From: an uncultured Anaerolineaceae bacterium | GTDB lineage: Bacteria > Chloroflexota > Anaerolineae > Aggregatilineales > Phototrophicaceae | Reading direction: 5' to 3' | Length of the DNA: 12,056 nucleotides | Assembly: GCA_964552425.1 (NCBI GenBank) | Contig: CAZKIB010000128.1 | Coordinates: forward strand, 1 to 12,056 | Shown here: piece by piece, positions 1,118-8,991 of the stretch | Position numbering within the stretch: the first letter of the stretch is position 1 | Layout of the letters: every line of letters begins with the position of its first letter | Program-made: the position numbers and the translations under genes | Notes under the pieces: generated by a model | Told to the model about the DNA's origin: nothing | The model's database searches: none | The model's input: the letters and a program-made list of their open reading frames with translations, nothing else

Positions 1118-3010
1118 TTAAGCACCGGTGATTTGTACAGTTCCAACGGGCAGCTCGTCTCCGCTGCCGCCCGTGTCATGTTCGCCGGTTAAGCGCTCCC
1201 CCGTACTCCAGTTATAGACCGCCGCCGTGAGCGTGTAGTCCCCCGCCGGAACATCCACCAGCGGCACAGGGATCAACTGCCAGCCAAAGCCGGCCGGACG
1301 CAGGCCGACATCCGCCTGGGTGACAAATTCGCCGCTGGCATCCCACAATTTGAGCGATACCGAGTAGGTGCTGGCGGGTATCTCTTCCCCAACTGACCAG
1401 CCGGCCGCGACCAGCAGGCGGCCCTGTTCCGTGTCCACGCCGGTTACGATGCCGCGCAGATCAATCCCTGCCGGGTAATGCACCAGCCGCGTCTGCGGTT
1501 CATCCACTTCCAGGCAGCCAATGACCGTCAGGTGATAACGCTCCATCACAAAGTCAGGCCGCTCAACCGGCGCAGCGCACAGCGTATAATCTTCCATCAG
1601 CACAGCGCGATAGGGCGCGAGCTGTTCCGGCGCGGTCTGCGGCTCGTATGCCAGCCACACGGTCAGCCGTGAATTAAGAGTGCGCAGCAGATCAAGCCGC
1701 ATTTCTCCGGTGGTGCGCGCTTCCGGCAGCGTGGCGAAATAGCCCTGCGGGACCAGATTCTGCGTATGAAACTGGCCGACAGTAAAAAAGCGGAAAATCT
1801 CGAAGACATGCCCCTGCCGTGAAAAACTGATGAGCAGGTCGTCCGGCTGAGCATGAGCGTTCGCTGCGGCCACAATTTCGCGCAGCGGCGGATAATCCTT
1901 CAGGTAGCGCGGGCCGTCCATCTCGGCCAGAAAATCCGCGTTCAGGGTGTTGGCGATCCCGAAACCGAGCCACACCGCCAGCAGCGCCACAGCCAACCGG
2001 CCCCAACGCAGTTTTTCCAGCATGGTCAGCCCCAGGGCCACCAGCAGCGCCAGCAGCGGCCACAGGTGAATCAGGTAGCGTGTGCGGCCCTCGCTAATCA
2101 TCGGGCGCACCTGATTAGCCGCCAGGGTCAGCACGAAGATCACGACGAGAAAGAACCAGACCTGAAGCGCGCCGCGCTCTCTGCGAAGCACAGCCAGCGC
2201 GCCCAGACCGGCCAGCAGCGCCAGTTCGATTGGGTTGCCGCTGCTGAACAGATGCAGCATTTCGGTGAAAATCGCCAGCGGCGGGAGCGGTTCTTCCCCC
2301 AACCCCACATTGCGCACGCCCTGAAGCAGCACCTGCATCCAGGGCACAAGCGACACACCGACTACCGCCAACACAATTGCCACTATCCACCAGCGGCGAT
2401 TTTTGGGCACGAACAGCAGGTGATACAGGCCGACAGCCGCCAGCACCAGCGCGCCGAACAGATGGGTATACAGCAGGAACAGTGCGCCAGTAAACAGCGC
2501 GGCCCATTCAATCCGGCGTGGTTCGCGCCGGCGACTGGCGATGCGCCCGTAAATCCACAGCACAAAGACCGTCAGAAAGGCGATCATCGTGTACATGCGG
2601 ACTTCGTGGGTGAAGTAGATGAAAAACGCGCCCAACGCCAGCGCCGCCGCCGCGTATACCCCTCCCCGCCAGCCCAGCCAGTCCGCGCCGAGGCGGTAAG
2701 TCCAGGCCACCGCCAGCAGACCGATCAGCAGCGCCAGCGCGCGCAGGCCAAAAGGAGTCCATCCGGTCAGGGCCGCCCATCCCGCGAGGATCACAAAATA
2801 ACCGGGCACATGCTGCGGGCTGTTGCTGCTGAGGGACTGCCACACCTGCACAGGGTTATAGGCTGGCCCCTGATAGCCGCCCACATTGCCGATGGAAAAG
2901 ACTTCGTCCAGCCAGAGCATGTCCATGTTCAGGCCGTACGCGCCGAACGCCATCAGCACCAGCAGGATGGGGATCAGCCAGAACCAGTGTTTATTCCGAG
3001 TGTTTGACAT
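1118..3010 (-). CDS. GT-C fold membrane glycosyltransferase (dolichyl-phosphate-mannose protein mannosyltransferase / ArnT-like) with an extra roughly 230-aa soluble C-terminal domain of unknown function
   Basis: 630-aa ORF. The N-terminal roughly 400 aa are polytopic membrane protein with an LWLDEVFSIGN (DE) loop-1 motif, SPQHVPGYF and FFIYFTHEVRMY segments typical of GT39/GT83 enzymes. The C-terminal roughly 230 aa are hydrophilic and non-membrane. The antisense 384-aa ORF is R/Q/H-rich low complexity. Confidence 0.9.
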   Translation of the reverse strand: MSNTRNKHWFWLIPILLVLMAFGAYGLNMDMLWLDEVFSIGNVGGYQGPAYNPVQVWQSLSSNSPQHVPGYFVILAGWAALTGWTPFGLRALALLIGLLAVAWTYRLGADWLGWRGGVYAAAALALGAFFIYFTHEVRMYTMIAFLTVFVLWIYGRIASRRREPRRIEWAALFTGALFLLYTHLFGALVLAAVGLYHLLFVPKNRRWWIVAIVLAVVGVSLVPWMQVLLQGVRNVGLGEEPLPPLAIFTEMLHLFSSGNPIELALLAGLGALAVLRRERGALQVWFFLVVIFVLTLAANQVRPMISEGRTRYLIHLWPLLALLVALGLTMLEKLRWGRLAVALLAVWLGFGIANTLNADFLAEMDGPRYLKDYPPLREIVAAANAHAQPDDLLISFSRQGHVFEIFRFFTVGQFHTQNLVPQGYFATLPEARTTGEMRLDLLRTLNSRLTVWLAYEPQTAPEQLAPYRAVLMEDYTLCAAPVERPDFVMERYHLTVIGCLEVDEPQTRLVHYPAGIDLRGIVTGVDTEQGRLLVAAGWSVGEEIPASTYSVSLKLWDASGEFVTQADVGLRPAGFGWQLIPVPLVDVPAGDYTLTAAVYNWSTGERLTGEHDTGGSGDELPVGTVQITGA

Positions 3011-3073
3011 GTGTCCAGACCACAGCGAAACCGCAGTCGCGCATTATGGCAGGATTTCGGCGTGTCGCAAAGG

Positions 3074-5122
3074 TCAGACATCGCGTTGATGGACCGGCGC
3101 GGCCAGCCGTTCGGCGATCAGTTCGGCCACATCCTTGACGACAGGGCCGCCGCTGCTGTGGGCCTGGGCGGTTTCAAACATCTGCATACAGAACGGACAG
3201 CCCACAGCCAGCACATCCGCGCCGGTGGCCTTCGCTTCCTCATAACGGTTGAGGTTGACGGCCTGTTCGCCGGGTTCTTCTTCTTTCCAGAACTGCGCGC
3301 CACCCGCCCCGCAGCAGAACGAATTGCGCCCGTGCCGGGGCATCTCAATCAGGGAGTCTTCCAGCCGGTTCAGGACTGTGCGCGGCGCGTCCACCACATC
3401 GTTATGCCGCCCCAGGTAGCACGGGTCATGAAACGTCACGTTGGATTGTTTACCGGGGTGCGCGCTGAGGGGCAAGCGTCCGGCCTGAATCAGTTCCTCG
3501 ATCAGTTCGGTGTGATGCACTACCGCGTACTGGCCGCCAAACTGGTGATACTCCTTGCCCAGGTTGTGGAAACAATGCGGGCAGGTCACGACGATGCGCG
3601 GCGGATTGACCGAGTTAAGGGTTTCAACATTGGCCGCCGCCATTTCGGAGTACAGAAATTCGTTCCCGGCCCGGCGGGCAGCATCCCCGGTGCAGGTTTC
3701 CTGTTCGCCCAGCACCGCAAAATTCACCCCGGCGGCGTGCAGCACTTTGACCAGTGCGCGGGCCGTGAGTTGGGCGCGCGGGTCATAACTGGCGGCACAA
3801 CCCACCCAGTAGAGAATATCAAAATCGGGATTTTCATCCACCGTTGGCACCGGCATATCCAGCCCGCTGGCCCAGCGGAAGCGCGCCCCGGCTTCCTGCT
3901 GCCAGGGGTTGCCCTGACGCTCCATACCGTTGAACGCGCCTTGCAGTGCCGCCGGGAAAGCGCCCTCCACCAGCACCTGATCGCGCCGGATGTCGAGAAT
4001 ATCAAACATCGGCTCGTTGCCTACCGGGCAAATATCGATGCAGGCCCCACAGGAGGTGCAGGCCCACACCGCCGACTCACTGATGGCGAAATTCATCAGC
4101 ACATGCAGCGATTCCTCACCGTTCGCCAGCCCGGTCATCTGGTCGCGGAGCAGATAACGCTTGTTGATTTCCAGCGCCGAGGGCGACAGTTCCTTGCCGG
4201 TGACATAGGCCGGGCAGACATCCTGACAGCGGTTGCACTGGATGCAGGCAAAGGCGTCAAAAATCTGCGTCCTGCTGAGATGTTCTATCCGCGCCGCGCC
4301 AAACTGCTCCCGGCTGTCGTCTTCAAAATCCAGCGGTTCCAGTTCACCAAGCGAAGTGCGCGGTGGGCGCGTCAGGTAATTGAGCGGGGCCATAAACAGA
4401 TGGGCGTGTTTGCTCACAGCAAAGTACGGCAAAAAGATCAGGATGCCGCCCAGCGCCACCCACCAGAACACATGAATCAGCAGGGTCAGGCCGTCGGCAT
4501 TCAGCCCGGCGAACAGCGGCGAGAGCAGCGTGGCGAACGGCTGCAACAAATCCGGCCCGGTCCCGGCCACCCGCGCGGACTGGCCCAGAAAACGCGCCCC
4601 CACATGCACCAGAATGAACCCGGCGACGATCAGCGAATCCTGACCGACTGCGCCGGCTTTGACCTTCGGGTGCAGCAGCACCTTCTCATGAAACTGAAGC
4701 TGTTTGCGGTTGGGCAAGAACCAGCGCCGCAGGATGAAATAAGTCACGCCTACCAGCACGACCACGCTCAACACATCGGCGGTCAGGCGATAAAGTTCAA
4801 ACAGGATGCCGCTGTCTTCCAGAAACACATAACCGGGGAAGAAGCCTTCCAGCACGTCGCCAAAGTTGACCAGAAAATAGAATGTGAAGCCCCACACCAC
4901 GCCGAGATGAAACAGGCTGGTGAGACGGCGTGTTTTGAGCGTCGTGCGCTGCGTCAGGTAAATCACCAGCGCGTCCCAAGCCCGCCGGGGCAGGTTATCC
5001 AGGTAGAGCTGGCCCTCGCCCCGGTTGATAATGCGGTACATGTCGGCAAATCCAGCCAGCGCCGCCGCCCCCGCCAGCGCCGCCAGCAGCACAAACAACA
5101 TTTGTTCAACCGGAGTCAGCAT
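3074..5122 (-). CDS. Membrane-bound iron-sulfur reductase: fusion of a NarI/HdrE/DsrM-like cytochrome b membrane domain with an HdrD/DsrK-like catalytic domain (two 4Fe-4S ferredoxin motifs plus two CCG domains); Rv0338c-like architecture
   Basis: N-terminal roughly 250 aa hold several TM helices with conserved His (HLGVVWGF, HVGARF, HVFWW, HAHLF). Two ferredoxin motifs follow (CIQCNRCQDVCP, CTSCGACIDICP), then two cysteine-rich CCG-type domains (CTGD...CPHC; CYLG...FCCGAGG...CPFC). The start is ambiguous: ATG at 5122 (MLTPVEQM, preferred) or TTG at 5137 as in the ORF track. The 716-aa plus-strand ORF is antisense to it. Confidence 0.88.
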   Translation of the reverse strand: MLTPVEQMLFVLLAALAGAAALAGFADMYRIINRGEGQLYLDNLPRRAWDALVIYLTQRTTLKTRRLTSLFHLGVVWGFTFYFLVNFGDVLEGFFPGYVFLEDSGILFELYRLTADVLSVVVLVGVTYFILRRWFLPNRKQLQFHEKVLLHPKVKAGAVGQDSLIVAGFILVHVGARFLGQSARVAGTGPDLLQPFATLLSPLFAGLNADGLTLLIHVFWWVALGGILIFLPYFAVSKHAHLFMAPLNYLTRPPRTSLGELEPLDFEDDSREQFGAARIEHLSRTQIFDAFACIQCNRCQDVCPAYVTGKELSPSALEINKRYLLRDQMTGLANGEESLHVLMNFAISESAVWACTSCGACIDICPVGNEPMFDILDIRRDQVLVEGAFPAALQGAFNGMERQGNPWQQEAGARFRWASGLDMPVPTVDENPDFDILYWVGCAASYDPRAQLTARALVKVLHAAGVNFAVLGEQETCTGDAARRAGNEFLYSEMAAANVETLNSVNPPRIVVTCPHCFHNLGKEYHQFGGQYAVVHHTELIEELIQAGRLPLSAHPGKQSNVTFHDPCYLGRHNDVVDAPRTVLNRLEDSLIEMPRHGRNSFCCGAGGAQFWKEEEPGEQAVNLNRYEEAKATGADVLAVGCPFCMQMFETAQAHSSGGPVVKDVAELIAERLAAPVHQRDV

Positions 5123-5298
5123 AAAGATTATTCCCAATACGTGGTATTCTCACTTCAATGAAGCGGAGTTTACCACCCACGCCTGAAAATGAGCAAAGCA
5201 AAGTCACGTTTGTATCAGGTAAGAAATTCCCGTTTCAAAGCTTCTTGATGTTAACGCTTGTGCAAAAAGACACGATCACCCCGACTGGAGTATATCGG

Positions 5299-5922
5299 AT
5301 GGCAATTGATTTCAAGCCTGTCAGCGAAGGTAAGATGCAGTTGTTGGAGTATTCGGGACGTTTTAGCGTCAACGACCTGCGGAAAGCCACCAACGACAGC
5401 ATCGACTTTTTTCTGGACCTGATTAAGGATATGGACGACGCCGACATGGTGTTCGCCCCCTACGACCCGGACGCCAACGACCCCCACGCCGCGCCCGGTG
5501 AAGAACACATCGGCTGGGGCATGGGACATCTGATCGCCCATGTCACCGCCAGCGCGGAGGAATGGGCCAGCTACAGTTCGATTCTGGCGCGGGGTGTCGC
5601 CTACCCTGCGGAACCCCGCCTGCGTTATGAAACCCCCTGGCGCGCAGTCGATACCAAATCGAAAGCCGTCCAGCGCCTTGAAGAAAGCCGCCGCATCCGC
5701 CTGGCCTATCTGGCCGCCTGGCCGGATTACCCCAACCTCGAACTCAAGCGCGAGCTTTCGCCCCGGTTTGTCGAACGACATGGTGAAATGAACGCACCGG
5801 CCTGTTTCCTGTTTGGTCTCAAGCATGAAGTCGGCCATTATGACCAGTTCCGCGAGGTCGCCCGCCAGATTCATGAGGTGAAGCAAACCGCGCCCGCGCA
5901 GACCGCTGCTGCCGCCGGTTGA
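5299..5922 (+). CDS. DinB/YfiT-family (DinB_2-like) metal-dependent protein, possible thiol-S-transferase-type enzyme
   Basis: His-containing motif HIGWGMGHLIAHVTASAEEW and overall size match the DinB/YfiT four-helix-bundle family (bacillithiol/mycothiol transferase relatives). The ORF track opens at 5158, but 5158-5298 is AT-rich (non-coding composition). ATG 5299 (MAIDFKPV...) is preceded by GGAG nine nt upstream and gives a family-typical roughly 207-aa product. Start therefore uncertain among 5158, 5248 and 5299. Confidence 0.75.
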   Translation: MAIDFKPVSEGKMQLLEYSGRFSVNDLRKATNDSIDFFLDLIKDMDDADMVFAPYDPDANDPHAAPGEEHIGWGMGHLIAHVTASAEEWASYSSILARGVAYPAEPRLRYETPWRAVDTKSKAVQRLEESRRIRLAYLAAWPDYPNLELKRELSPRFVERHGEMNAPACFLFGLKHEVGHYDQFREVARQIHEVKQTAPAQTAAAAG

Positions 5923-5953
5923 CGGCCTGATGTCCTCAGCCAGGACTCAATCA

Positions 5954-5986
5954 GGTGTATCGTATCAGTGTGCGGTACACCTTTTT
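5954..5986 (+). terminator. Probable intrinsic terminator downstream of the DinB-family gene
   Basis: Roughly 12-13 bp imperfect stem ggtgtatcgtat/gtgcggtacacc (three G-U pairs, 4-nt loop cagt) followed directly by TTTTT at 5982-5986, 32 nt after the TGA stop at 5920-5922. Confidence 0.5.
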
Positions 5987-6011: not shown

Positions 6012-6040
6012 TTGCAATCTTCCGGCACGTCTTCTATACT
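6012..6040 (+). promoter_or_regulatory. Sigma70-like promoter for the hisS leader transcript
   Basis: TTGCAA at 6012-6017, a 17-nt spacer, then TATACT at 6035-6040. This is a near-consensus -35/-10 pair with ideal spacing, in an AT-richer intergenic region just upstream of the His-codon leader ORF. Confidence 0.45.
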
Positions 6041-6076
6041 CAGCCTATTGCTGGTTCTGAGATTGTGGGTCAGGCT

Positions 6077-6118
6077 ATGTTTTTCCATCATCATCATTCA
6101 CAGGAAAAGTACAGCTAA
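6077..6118 (+). CDS. Putative histidine-rich leader peptide (MFFHHHHSQEKYS) of a hisS transcription attenuator
   Basis: atg ttt ttc cat cat cat cat tca cag gaa aag tac agc taa: a 13-codon ORF with four consecutive His codons. It lies between a promoter-like element and a hairpin plus T-run terminator, about 130 nt upstream of the histidyl-tRNA synthetase gene. The ORF track reports the in-frame longer version 5930..6118, which would start upstream of the predicted promoter. Confidence 0.5.
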   Translation: MFFHHHHSQEKYS

Positions 6119-6144
6119 CCGGCGACCCGATTCGAGATCACAGA

Positions 6145-6169
6145 GCGCGGACGTTGGTTCGCGCTTTTT
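6145..6169 (+). terminator. Attenuator terminator: GC-rich hairpin plus T-run in the hisS leader
   Basis: gcgcgga(c) / (g)ttcgcgc gives a 7-bp stem (6 Watson-Crick plus 1 G-U) with loop cgttgg at 6145-6164, followed by TTTTTATTT at 6165-6173. It sits 26 nt after the leader-peptide stop and about 75 nt before the hisS start codon. Confidence 0.55.
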
Positions 6170-6246
6170 ATTTGCATGAAACCTGTGCCGTTCGCGCAGG
6201 GGTGGTTTGCGAACCGCCCGGCGCTTGATTACACAAGGAATAAAAA

Positions 6247-7590
6247 ATGGCTGACGTGAAGATTCAACCCCGCTTGCCCAAAGGAATGCGTGACTATCTC
6301 CCGCAGGAGATGCTCAAGCGCGAGTACGTGTTTAACATCGTGCGCGACGTGTTCCACCTGTACGGCTTCGAGCCGCTGCAAACCCCGGTGCTGGAACTGA
6401 ACGAAATCCTCATGGGCAAGTATGGCGAAGACGCCGAAAAGCTGATCTATCACGCCCAGCACCCCGGCGGTAAGGAAGAACTCGCCCTGCGCTACGATCT
6501 GACCGTGCCGCTGGCGCGTGTGGTCGGCCAGTACCAGAATGAGATCAACCTGCCGTTCAAGCGCTACCAGCTTTCACCGGTGTGGCGCGCGGAACGCCCG
6601 CAGCGAGGCCGTTACCGCGAATTTTACCAGTGTGATGTGGACATCGTGGGCATCGCCGGCATGAGCGCCGACGCGGAAATCATCGGCGTTGTGGTGACGG
6701 CGCTGAAAAAACTCGGCTTCCCGCAGTTCACGGTCAAAATCAACAACCGCAAGCTGCTGACGGCCATCGGCCAGTATTCCGGCGTGCCCGACGCGCAGTT
6801 GGGCGATCTGTACCGCAGCGTCGACAAGTTCGACAAAATCGGCGCGGACGGGGTGCGCAGGGAACTGGTCGAACGCGGCATTTCCGGTGAAGTCGTCGCC
6901 CGCATGATGGACCTGATCCTCGCGCACGAGCCGGGCCTGGGCAACTTGGATGTGCTGGAACAGGCGATGGGCAGCATCCCGGCGGCGCAGGAAGGTATCC
7001 GCGAACTGCGCGAGCTGGCGGCCTGGCTGGAAACCATGTCCATCTCGCCGGAGGATTACAGCACGGATTTTACGATGGTGCGCGGCCTGGGTTATTACAC
7101 TGGCCCGATCTTCGAGACGGTCATCGAGGAGCCGAACCTCGGCAGCATCAGCGGCGGCGGGCGCTATGACGACCTGATCGGCATGTTCCGCAAGGAAAGC
7201 CTGCCTACCACCGGCACATCGCTTGGCATTGAACGCATCATCGACCTGATGGAATTCTTCAGGCTGTACCCGGAGCATATCGTCGGCACGGTCATTCAGG
7301 TGTTTGTCAGCGTGTTTGATGAAAGCACCCGCGCCGAATCGACCCGGCTGGCGGCGGAACTGCGCGCACAGGGCATCCGCACCGAACTGCAACTGGAAGA
7401 TCGCAAACTGGGCCGCCAGTTCCAGCACGCAGACCGCCGGGGAATCCCGCTCGTGGCCGTGCTGGGGCCGGAAGAAGTGGCACAGAAAATCGTCAAACTC
7501 AAGCGCCTGTCAGATGGCGAAGAATTTGCTGTGCCGCGCAGTGACCTGGCTGCGAAGGTGCGCGAACTGCTTGGCACACAGGTCCGATAA
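6247..7590 (+). CDS. hisS: Histidine--tRNA ligase (class II histidyl-tRNA synthetase)
   Basis: 447 aa with class II aaRS motif 2 (RYREFYQCDVDIVG) and the HisRS-type motif RGLGYYTGPIFE. C-terminal anticodon-binding domain present (GIPLVAVLGPEEVAQKIVKLKRL), so this is not the truncated HisZ paralogue. RBS AAGGA eight nt upstream of the ATG. Confidence 0.93.
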   Translation: MADVKIQPRLPKGMRDYLPQEMLKREYVFNIVRDVFHLYGFEPLQTPVLELNEILMGKYGEDAEKLIYHAQHPGGKEELALRYDLTVPLARVVGQYQNEINLPFKRYQLSPVWRAERPQRGRYREFYQCDVDIVGIAGMSADAEIIGVVVTALKKLGFPQFTVKINNRKLLTAIGQYSGVPDAQLGDLYRSVDKFDKIGADGVRRELVERGISGEVVARMMDLILAHEPGLGNLDVLEQAMGSIPAAQEGIRELRELAAWLETMSISPEDYSTDFTMVRGLGYYTGPIFETVIEEPNLGSISGGGRYDDLIGMFRKESLPTTGTSLGIERIIDLMEFFRLYPEHIVGTVIQVFVSVFDESTRAESTRLAAELRAQGIRTELQLEDRKLGRQFQHADRRGIPLVAVLGPEEVAQKIVKLKRLSDGEEFAVPRSDLAAKVRELLGTQVR

Positions 7591-7641: not shown

Positions 7642-8991
7642 ATGGACTTCAACCTTCTTCGGACAACCACAGAACTCGCCATTCGCTACCTCGACGGGCT
7701 GAATGAACGCGGCGTTGCGCCAACCGATGCGGCACTGGCACGGCTGACCGAGTTGGGCGGGCCGTTCCCGGATATGCCCACCGACCCGATGCAGGTCATC
7801 ACGCTGCTTAACGAGGTGGGATCACCAGCTACCGTTGCTACCGCAGGCAGTCGCTATTTCGGGTTTGTCATTGGCGGCGCTTTACCGGCGTCGCTGGCTG
7901 CGAACTGGCTGGCCGGGGCATGGGATCAGATGGCCGGGCTGTACGTTTCTTCGCCTGTCAGCGCGGAGCTTGAAGAAACTGCCCGACGCTGGCTGCTGGA
8001 CGCGCTGACGCTGCCGCCGGATGCCGAAATCGGCTTTGTGACCGGTGCAACAATGGCAAATTTCACCGGGTTGGCAGCAGCCCGACATGCTTTGTTGAAG
8101 CGTGCAGGATGGGATGTCGAAGCAGATGGTCTGTTTGATGCGCCGCCTGTCACCGTGGTGGTCGGTGATGAGGTTCACGCCAGCCTGTTGAAAGCCCTCA
8201 GCCTGCTGGGGTTTGGCCGGAACCGGGTGGTGCGCGTGCCTACCGATGACCAGGGTCGCATGATGCCGGACAAGCTTCCACCGCTTGATAACTCAACCCT
8301 CCTTTGCATCCAGGCTGGAAATGTCAATACCGGGGCGTTCGACCCCACAGACATTCTTTGTGATCGCGCGCACGAGGCCGGGGCATGGGTCCATGTGGAT
8401 GGCGCGTTTGGCCTGTGGCTGGCGGCCAACTCGCAGCGTACTCATCTCACGGCGGGCACTGCCAAAGCCGACTCCTGGGCGCTTGACGCACACAAGTGGC
8501 TGAATGTGCCTTATGACAGCGGCCTGGCGATCTGCCGCAGTCCCCAGGATTTGCGGGCCGCCATGTCCACCAGTGCCAGTTACCTGCTGGAAAGCGAACA
8601 ACGTGACCCCTTCCAGTTTACGCCGGAATTATCAAGACGGGCACGCGCTGTTGAAATCTGGGCGGCGCTCCTCTCACTGGGCCGTTCCGGGCTGGCCGAC
8701 CTGCTTGAACGCACCTGCCAACTGGCGGAGCGGTTTGCGAACGGGCTACGGGCCGCCGGTTATGACATCCTGAACGAAGTGGTTGCCAATCAGGTGCTGG
8801 TTTCCTTTGGCAATGCCGATACCACCCGGCGGGTGATCGCCGCAGTCCAGCAGGAGGGGACCTGCTGGTGCGGGAGTACCGTCTGGCATGGGCACATAGC
8901 CATGCGCATCAGTGTCTCCAGCTGGGCCACGACCGAAGCCGATGTGGATTGCAGCCTGGACGCAATGATCCGCATCGCACGAGCCGGATAA
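7642..8991 (+). CDS. PLP-dependent group II decarboxylase (aspartate aminotransferase fold type I family); substrate unknown
   Basis: 449 aa with DAHKWLNVPYDSG, matching the PLP-lysine region of DOPA/tyrosine/glutamate decarboxylase-type enzymes (cf. NPHKWLLVNFDCS). RBS GAAGGA eight nt upstream. Lies 51 nt downstream of hisS with no intervening terminator, so possibly co-transcribed. Confidence 0.88.
   Translation: MDFNLLRTTTELAIRYLDGLNERGVAPTDAALARLTELGGPFPDMPTDPMQVITLLNEVGSPATVATAGSRYFGFVIGGALPASLAANWLAGAWDQMAGLYVSSPVSAELEETARRWLLDALTLPPDAEIGFVTGATMANFTGLAAARHALLKRAGWDVEADGLFDAPPVTVVVGDEVHASLLKALSLLGFGRNRVVRVPTDDQGRMMPDKLPPLDNSTLLCIQAGNVNTGAFDPTDILCDRAHEAGAWVHVDGAFGLWLAANSQRTHLTAGTAKADSWALDAHKWLNVPYDSGLAICRSPQDLRAAMSTSASYLLESEQRDPFQFTPELSRRARAVEIWAALLSLGRSGLADLLERTCQLAERFANGLRAAGYDILNEVVANQVLVSFGNADTTRRVIAAVQQEGTCWCGSTVWHGHIAMRISVSSWATTEADVDCSLDAMIRIARAG

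Follow-up and report, generated by a model that had tools for sequence, protein, structure and literature searches.

In the pheM–pheST system of E. coli, a leader peptide with cognate codons attenuates the gene of the cognate aminoacyl-tRNA synthetase, and in the hisL leader of the E. coli and Salmonella histidine biosynthetic operon a short open reading frame (ORF) with a run of His codons precedes alternative antiterminator and terminator hairpins. A region of comparable build lies at positions 6012–6246, directly upstream of the histidine–tRNA ligase (HisRS) gene hisS, in the stretch of DNA considered here, the first 12,056 nt (forward strand) of contig CAZKIB010000128.1 of an uncultured Anaerolineaceae bacterium (Chloroflexota; assembly GCA_964552425.1). 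The whole stretch is referred to below as the window. Judging from this sequence and from those of its relatives, we consider it likely that the region works as a transcription attenuator of the classical ribosome-mediated (leader-peptide) type, which adjusts hisS transcription to the availability of His-tRNA(His). Attenuation of this type is a textbook mechanism; the phylum is new and the target gene is unusual.

With hisL the locus shares the short leader ORF carrying the His run, the alternative hairpins behind it and, as predicted here, the sensing of charged tRNA-His through ribosome stalling. It differs from hisL in having four His codons instead of seven, in its target, which is a synthetase gene and not a biosynthetic operon, in the position of the element termed segment 1 below, which lies 5′ of the leader AUG and not inside the ORF, and in an antiterminator strand that begins in the stop codon; neither in sequence nor in structure does it match the corresponding Rfam family His_leader (RF00514). 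The pheM–pheST system, cited in PMC1262725, resembles our locus in its synthetase target and in the autoregulation through charged tRNA, but it is concerned with Phe, belongs to another phylum and is unrelated in sequence. The hisS T-box of Firmicutes (RF00230) responds to the same quantity, the tRNA-His charging ratio, and likewise acts through terminator read-through before hisS, but a T-box senses uncharged tRNA directly by RNA–tRNA contact, without translation. Both the T-box and the His_leader identity were rejected for want of a covariance-model match: the Rfam scan of the window at E ≤ 1 returned neither RF00514 nor RF00230 and only a chance snoRNA-like match elsewhere, and in 20 related loci, scanned at the gathering score, neither a T-box nor any other family was returned.

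A His leader peptide has been predicted 5′ of a hisS paralogue (hisS*) and of hisZ in bacilli (Naville & Gautheret 2010, PMC2965389), and the statement in the original prediction that attenuation of this kind is not described for hisS was therefore too strong. The bacillar leader, compared here by its description, likewise consists of a His-codon mini-ORF and a premature terminator and, like ours, is predicted by comparative genomics only; it belongs to the paralogue and to hisZ, the main hisS of those bacteria having a T-box, whereas the gene in question here is a hisS equivalog of Chloroflexota. For Streptomyces, Seliverstov et al. (2005, PMC1262725) predicted classical attenuators on trpS and leuS, which resemble the present case as leader-peptide attenuation of synthetase genes outside Proteobacteria and differ from it in the amino acids and in the phylum. 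Our full-text literature search yielded nothing for Chloroflexota or for the primary hisS; a prior description in Lopatovskaya et al. 2010, which deals with attenuation of amino-acid and aminoacyl-tRNA operons, is possible.

The promoter, the 13-codon ORF with four CAT codons, the hairpin with its T-run and hisS, on which the original prediction was built, are all present in the order it gave (Table 1). The promoter agrees with the consensus at 9 of 12 positions and would start transcription near 6047. The His run is a rare outcome of chance, as in 20,000 shuffles of 6041–6141 HHHH occurred in one and HHH in 48. The terminator is an 11-pair stem at 6142–6167 with the loop GTTG, followed by TTTTTATTT; its fold amounts to −17 kcal/mol and it is the best-ranked terminator-like site in the window. 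The stem begins 23 nt after the stop codon, and the previously given gap of 26 nt between ORF and hairpin is correct when measured to the G+C core. The regulated gene is identified from its profile matches as a genuine histidine–tRNA ligase: the protein scores 390 bits against TIGR00442 (equivalog cut-off 287) and 203 bits against the hisZ model, below the cut-off of 272, and it matches Pfam tRNA-synt_His (2.6e-45) as well as HGTP_anticodon (9.6e-19), the domain that distinguishes it from HisZ.

In the mechanism that we propose, transcription would begin about 30 nt 5′ of the leader ORF and its outcome would be set by the position of the ribosome. When charged tRNA-His is plentiful, the ribosome would pass the four CAU codons, reach the UAA and cover segment 2 (6117–6129); segment 3 would then pair with segment 4, and the hairpin with its U-run would end transcription near 6167–6172, before hisS. 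When charged tRNA-His is scarce, because histidine is lacking or HisRS is in short supply, the ribosome would stall at codons 4–7 and leave segment 2 free to pair with the emerging 5′ arm and loop of the terminator (6143–6158), so that the terminator would be blocked and the polymerase would read into hisS. If no ribosome is loaded, segment 1 (6048–6056) could hold segment 2, and termination would follow by default. The net effect would be a homeostatic feedback in which the output of HisRS controls the synthesis of HisRS; the loop would be homeostatic, as in pheST, because the regulated gene makes the molecule that is sensed. The elements exist, are conserved and covary. We infer the translation of the leader, the activity of promoter and terminator, the stalling, and the direction and size of the response.

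The three helices of the scheme are mutually exclusive and correctly placed relative to the ribosome footprints. Folds were cut before the terminator 3′ arm and masked by the footprint, for which the E. coli size was assumed, with a reach of 12 nt past the first nucleotide of the A site, in order to find the partner of the 5′ arm before the 3′ arm is made. With the ribosome on the last His codon the RNA is free from 6108, and 6118–6133 pairs with 6143–6158 at −14.1 kcal/mol; this partner is the terminator 5′ arm plus loop, and the pairing is thus incompatible with the terminator. Placed on the stop codon, the ribosome masks the RNA as far as 6128, and what remains is unrelated structure of only −2.3 kcal/mol. 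Across 21 leaders, the footprint on the His codons gives antiterminators of −8.7 to −19 kcal/mol, with 5–10 nt of the terminator 5′ arm paired in most of them, while the footprint on the stop codon leaves −1.5 to −5.7 kcal/mol in most. The spacing from stop codon to terminator is 22–27 nt in 20 of these 21. A structure sequestering the 5′ half of the terminator had been anticipated and is indeed found, dependent on the position of the ribosome, but its strand does not come from the repeats gttcgcgc and gcgaac as was then suggested: it consists of the stop codon and the next 15 nt (6117–6133). Another pairing, of 6051–6059 with the terminator 5′ arm (−11 kcal/mol), was considered for the antiterminator and not adopted, being blind to ribosome position.

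Comparative counts for the helices were taken from a 16-sequence alignment (A2), with slid-partner controls. The terminator (segments 3:4) is paired in 98.9% of cells, against 19–64% in the slid controls, and the antiterminator (2:3) in 89.0% (94.8% in its core) against 30–45%. The terminator stem has two pairs changed on both sides, with compensatory G–C/A–U exchanges, and the antiterminator has four; the TTTTT of the T-run is invariant in all 16 sequences. The antiterminator core is made of the stop codon and CCRR pairing with the terminator loop, and its clearest single case is the relative L170, where a loop CGUCAG, in place of CGUUGG, is accompanied by a post-stop GCUGAC in place of CCRRCG. 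RNAalifold, given the sequences ending before the 3′ arm and supplied with no structure, returned the same antiterminator; on the full alignment it returned the terminator only.

The pairing of segment 1 with segment 2 amounts to −12.0 kcal/mol in the window and lies within the minimum free energy (MFE) fold of 6047–6141. In the alignment it is found in 68% of cells against 19–45% in slid controls, a figure lowered because the window's own copy is misaligned, and it has five pairs changed on both sides. The equivalent of segment 1 in relatives is CGYUGG just 5′ of the leader AUG, which covaries with segment 2; one of the pairs reads CG in six sequences, UA in five and UG in two. In most relatives segment 1 directly adjoins the AUG, and stalling on His codon 3 or 4 would place it under the ribosome.

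The closest hisS genes, from a species-level genome collection and from metagenomes, all belong to metagenome-assembled Anaerolineae (Aggregatilineales, Phototrophicaceae; Chloroflexota). The DNA 5′ of hisS was read in 171 related loci, and an automated scan picked out small ORFs that contain a His run and have a hairpin and T-run within the next 110 nt. This combination occurs in 13 of the 26 loci with hisS at least 52% identical and in none of the 115 more distant ones; HHH in any small upstream ORF is found in 12 of the former and none of the latter, and no other amino acid stood out in runs in the same 26 and 115 loci. Further relatives drawn from the protein index (76–93% hisS identity) have the element in 11 of 11 cases, their leaders being MAFHHHHPQGNYS, MFHHHHWTEEQLF, MMFHPHHLNRIPNS, MFFHHRTIHNTI, MMRHHHPKREHS, MFHHHHSTMEKHP, MFHHHHFKIVDTV, MICHHHHGNAYPC, MLFHHHLIAYRC, MNLQRHHHAIVERG and MMYQKRNHHPILNNT, and homologous His-run mini-ORFs are present in more than 24 related loci altogether. 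More distant members of the clade have differently built leaders that are rich in His all the same, such as MPARVSLQHHHSGNRP (L010), MFFHHHAGGFY (L011) and MNCTHTHHHHPQPPYR (L005), and three loci (L013, L090 and L092) have leaders of 28–29 codons, for example MNRRSSLAHIHSHHHAHHYDAPLCRAGD (L092). Since the peptides diverge except for the His run, selection appears to act on the codons and not on the peptide product. Of the 13 closest relatives, 11 have identical promoter hexamers separated by the same 17 nt, with a spacer that varies in sequence, and the distance from the end of the −10 hexamer to the leader AUG is 31–37 nt in 12 of the 13 closest loci with a matched promoter. The originally proposed His-codon attenuator feeding back on hisS, with a conserved short His-codon ORF and hairpin with T-run in related genomes, is therefore supported in silico both by conservation and by the alternative structure.

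The His codons of the 21 leaders are 56 CAT and 18 CAC, against 31 and 54 in the genes of the window, a comparison that spans several genomes; the preference for CAU, which is read by wobble, is compatible with tuning for sensitivity.

Table 1. Coordinates of the predicted hisS attenuator and adjoining features (window numbering)
Feature	Position	Strand	Basis or remark
DinB_2-family gene upstream of the hisS leader	5158–5922		family assignment
Terminator-like hairpin, 13 pairs and TTTTT, 31 nt 3′ of the DinB_2-family gene	5953–5982	+	
−35 hexamer TTGCAA	6012–6017	+	direct reading and promoter scan
−10 hexamer TATACT	6035–6040	+	promoter scan; 17-nt spacer to −35
Segment 1, UUGCUGGUU, complementary to segment 2, candidate anti-antiterminator	6048–6056	+	folding, covariation
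Leader ORF, MFFHHHHSQEKYS and stop, 13 codons	6077–6118	+	ATG 6077, TAA 6116–6118
Four consecutive CAT (His) codons, codons 4–7, putative sensor	6086–6097	+	direct reading
Segment 2, antiterminator 5′ strand: stop-codon nt 2–3, CCGGCG, ACCCGAUUC	6117–6133	+	masked folds, alignment
Segment 3, terminator 5′ arm (6142–6152) and loop (6153–6156), common to antiterminator and terminator	6142–6156	+	
Segment 4, terminator 3′ arm	6157–6167	+	terminator scan
T-run TTTTTATTT, putative release site	6165–6173	+	direct reading and terminator scan
hisS Shine–Dalgarno sequence AAGGA	6235–6239	+	direct reading
hisS, histidine–tRNA ligase, putative regulated gene, 447 aa	6247–7590	+	Pfam, NCBIfam TIGR00442

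Several observations weigh against the attenuator as we describe it. The promoter match taken alone is not above chance, with three such sites in the window and 3.9 expected, and the Shine–Dalgarno (SD)-like sequence of the leader ORF is weak (GUGGG/CAGG, 6066–6075). About half of the wider clade is without the element, including L003, which has the same DinB_2–hisS gene order. In L007 (~2870–2967) the promoter, a 20-codon leader ORF and the terminator are in place with one His codon only, and L082 (~1370–1462) is without an in-frame start codon; in the latter the promoter, two His codons, the post-stop motif CCAGCG and the terminator are still present, and the loop AGGCGG pairs with a relocated CCGCCU. 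Both are variant or decayed copies. The shuffle counts of the helix tests are not probabilities, and the aligned sequences share kinship; the slid-partner controls and the independent recovery by RNAalifold are stronger evidence than these counts. The segment 1 of the window itself is placed 21 nt 5′ of the AUG, beyond the footprint of the stalled ribosome, and therefore the footprint does not account for the 1:2 pairing being avoided during stalling.

The remaining point concerns the energetics. Equilibrium folds of 6047–6260 and of 6047–6172, with or without the ribosome mask, always keep the terminator, and the whole leader folds no better than its shuffles (z = −1.2). In the comparison of masked and unmasked folds that had been suggested for this locus, the terminator thus always wins at equilibrium, while masked folds ending before the 3′ arm give the antiterminator. 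It follows that the model depends on co-transcriptional kinetics and that the MFE alone cannot show a switch. In the trp attenuator of E. coli the terminator is likewise favoured at equilibrium, and kinetics are decisive.

The best surviving alternative is that the unit is an independent small transcript, either an sRNA or the mRNA of a His-rich micropeptide (for instance a metal-binding one), and that hisS has its own promoter 3′ of 6172. The unit does have promoter-like and terminator-like sites of its own, and the approximately 75 nt between the T-run and the hisS start, which exceed 200 nt in some relatives (L167), could hold another promoter, although the promoter scan found no promoter-like site in 6170–6246. 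The element is found only beside hisS and only in one clade, and the peptide is not conserved apart from its His run; a free-standing peptide gene needs neither the conserved spacing from stop codon to terminator nor the conserved and covarying pairing of the stop region with the loop. We consider this explanation very unlikely.

Still less probable, in our opinion, is a terminator that is constitutive or coupled to translation in general, sensed by a protein or by Rho, with His codons that are incidental and inherited within the lineage. L007, with its single His codon, and L082, with no start codon, show that a His run is not needed for the module to persist. Nevertheless, the His runs have been kept where all other residues have diverged, including the independent 28–29-codon leaders of L013, L090 and L092, and runs of no other amino acid are enriched.

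The spacer between the terminator and hisS bears on the last alternative. The downstream repeats sit in a long imperfect hairpin at 6182–6238 (+ strand), and in the MFE fold of 6168–6250 the CCU at 6182–6184 pairs with the AGG at 6236–6238 of the hisS SD sequence. This hairpin does not stand out from shuffled sequence (z = −1.5; a fold of equal or greater stability in 15 of 200 shuffles); in L161, the closest relative (hisS 93% identical), the distance from T-run to hisS is about 50 nt and the hairpin region is absent, and L164, L165, L167 and L170 have other, unrelated G+C-rich palindromes in the spacer. The spacer looks like an insertion hot spot, and on this comparison the hairpin is treated as variable inserted sequence and probably not a second switch. 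The second, translational switch that was suggested from the repeats is thus left without support, and the two copies of gttcgcgc with gcgaac were rejected as antiterminator or second switch because close relatives lack their region or have other sequence in its place and because the fold is not significant. As to their coordinates, the first gttcgcgc is at 6157 as reported, while the second copy occupies 6190–6197 (not 6189–6196) and gcgaac 6209–6214 (not 6207–6213). The least probable of the three explanations, that the main effect of the leader is on translation or mRNA stability and not on transcription termination, through masking of the hisS SD sequence by hairpin 6182–6238 or through re-initiation from the leader such as has been proposed for leader genes of other bacteria (PMC4833913), meets not only this poor conservation of the hairpin but also a leader stop codon that is separated from the hisS start by 128 nt, a distance too long for coupling, and a conserved element that is a canonical hairpin with U-run.

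The octamer GTTCGCGC occurs five times in the window (468, 2521, 6157, 6190 and 7560) against 1.06 expected, a number reached in 0 of 200 shuffles, and two of the copies, 33 nt apart, flank the attenuator T-run.

Some further observations were made on the leaders. Within the leader ORF of the window a small hairpin is formed around the His codons by 6078–6086 (UGUUUUUCC) and 6103–6111 (GGAAAAGUA), which alone amounts to −3.6 kcal/mol; by eye, similar short pairings of other sequences flank the His run in L081, L084, L162 and L166. This structure might be a polymerase pause hairpin. The His-rich leaders of L013 (1048–1137), L090 (469–558) and L092 (100–186) have a common C-terminus, DAPLC(H/R)AG, and the DNA under it, GCCACGCC, complements the 5′ arm of the terminator, GGCGTGG, for which reason the conservation is probably at the RNA level, with an antiterminator strand inside the ORF. 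In L015 (2779–2886) the His-rich frame (12 His in 35 codons) has a TTG start only and is overlapped by an ATG-start frame encoding an Ile/Thr-rich peptide, MMSIDTLIYISTILIMSITMLTIAPLKERPEDIVF; either frame may be read. L009 has a second mini-ORF, MHIDSHHH (2951–2977), between the terminator and hisS, beside the upstream leader MRYHRKHHRNN.

As for the surroundings of the locus, the hairpin at 5953–5982 separates the DinB_2-family gene from the hisS leader promoter, and the hairpin at 6142 is not the terminator of that gene because the gene has this one of its own. Downstream, a gene for a group II PLP-dependent decarboxylase (Pfam Pyridoxal_deC; 7642–8991, + strand) follows hisS at a distance of 51 nt, and the two may share a transcript. 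The adjacency of hisS and the decarboxylase gene is kept in L161 and L165, not in other relatives, and a histidine decarboxylase identity was not obtained, the NCBIfam matches (PanP, DABA and Tyr decarboxylases) all being sub-threshold. For the ORFs 1118–3010 and 3011–5161 (630 and 716 aa) neither Pfam nor NCBIfam gives a match, and either strand may be the coding one, as each of them is overlapped by a long ORF of the opposite strand (1853–3007, +; 3074–5137, −).

If the pairing of segments 1 and 2 is taken at face value, the architecture of this attenuator may be an inverted one. The anti-antiterminator would then precede the leader start codon and occupy or adjoin the ribosome-binding site. 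With the ribosome stalled on the very early His codons (codons 3–7), its 5′ edge and not its 3′ edge would free the antiterminator strand, which starts inside the stop codon. We put forward only tentatively this arrangement, and with it the possibility that these leaders are the first recognised leader-peptide attenuator family in Chloroflexota, on the primary hisS.

From the point of view of the organisms, the attenuator that we regard as likely would extend leader-peptide attenuation, of which biosynthetic operons of proteobacteria and pheST are the best-known cases, to the main hisS of the mostly uncultured and poorly studied Anaerolineae. It would add a case of 'sensor switching' for hisS, which has a T-box in Firmicutes, a leader peptide here and nothing in close relatives. 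The conserved, covarying module of approximately 125 nt is absent from Rfam and could be modelled to annotate metagenome-assembled genomes, and its patchy presence within one clade would provide a natural series on the gain and loss of an attenuator.

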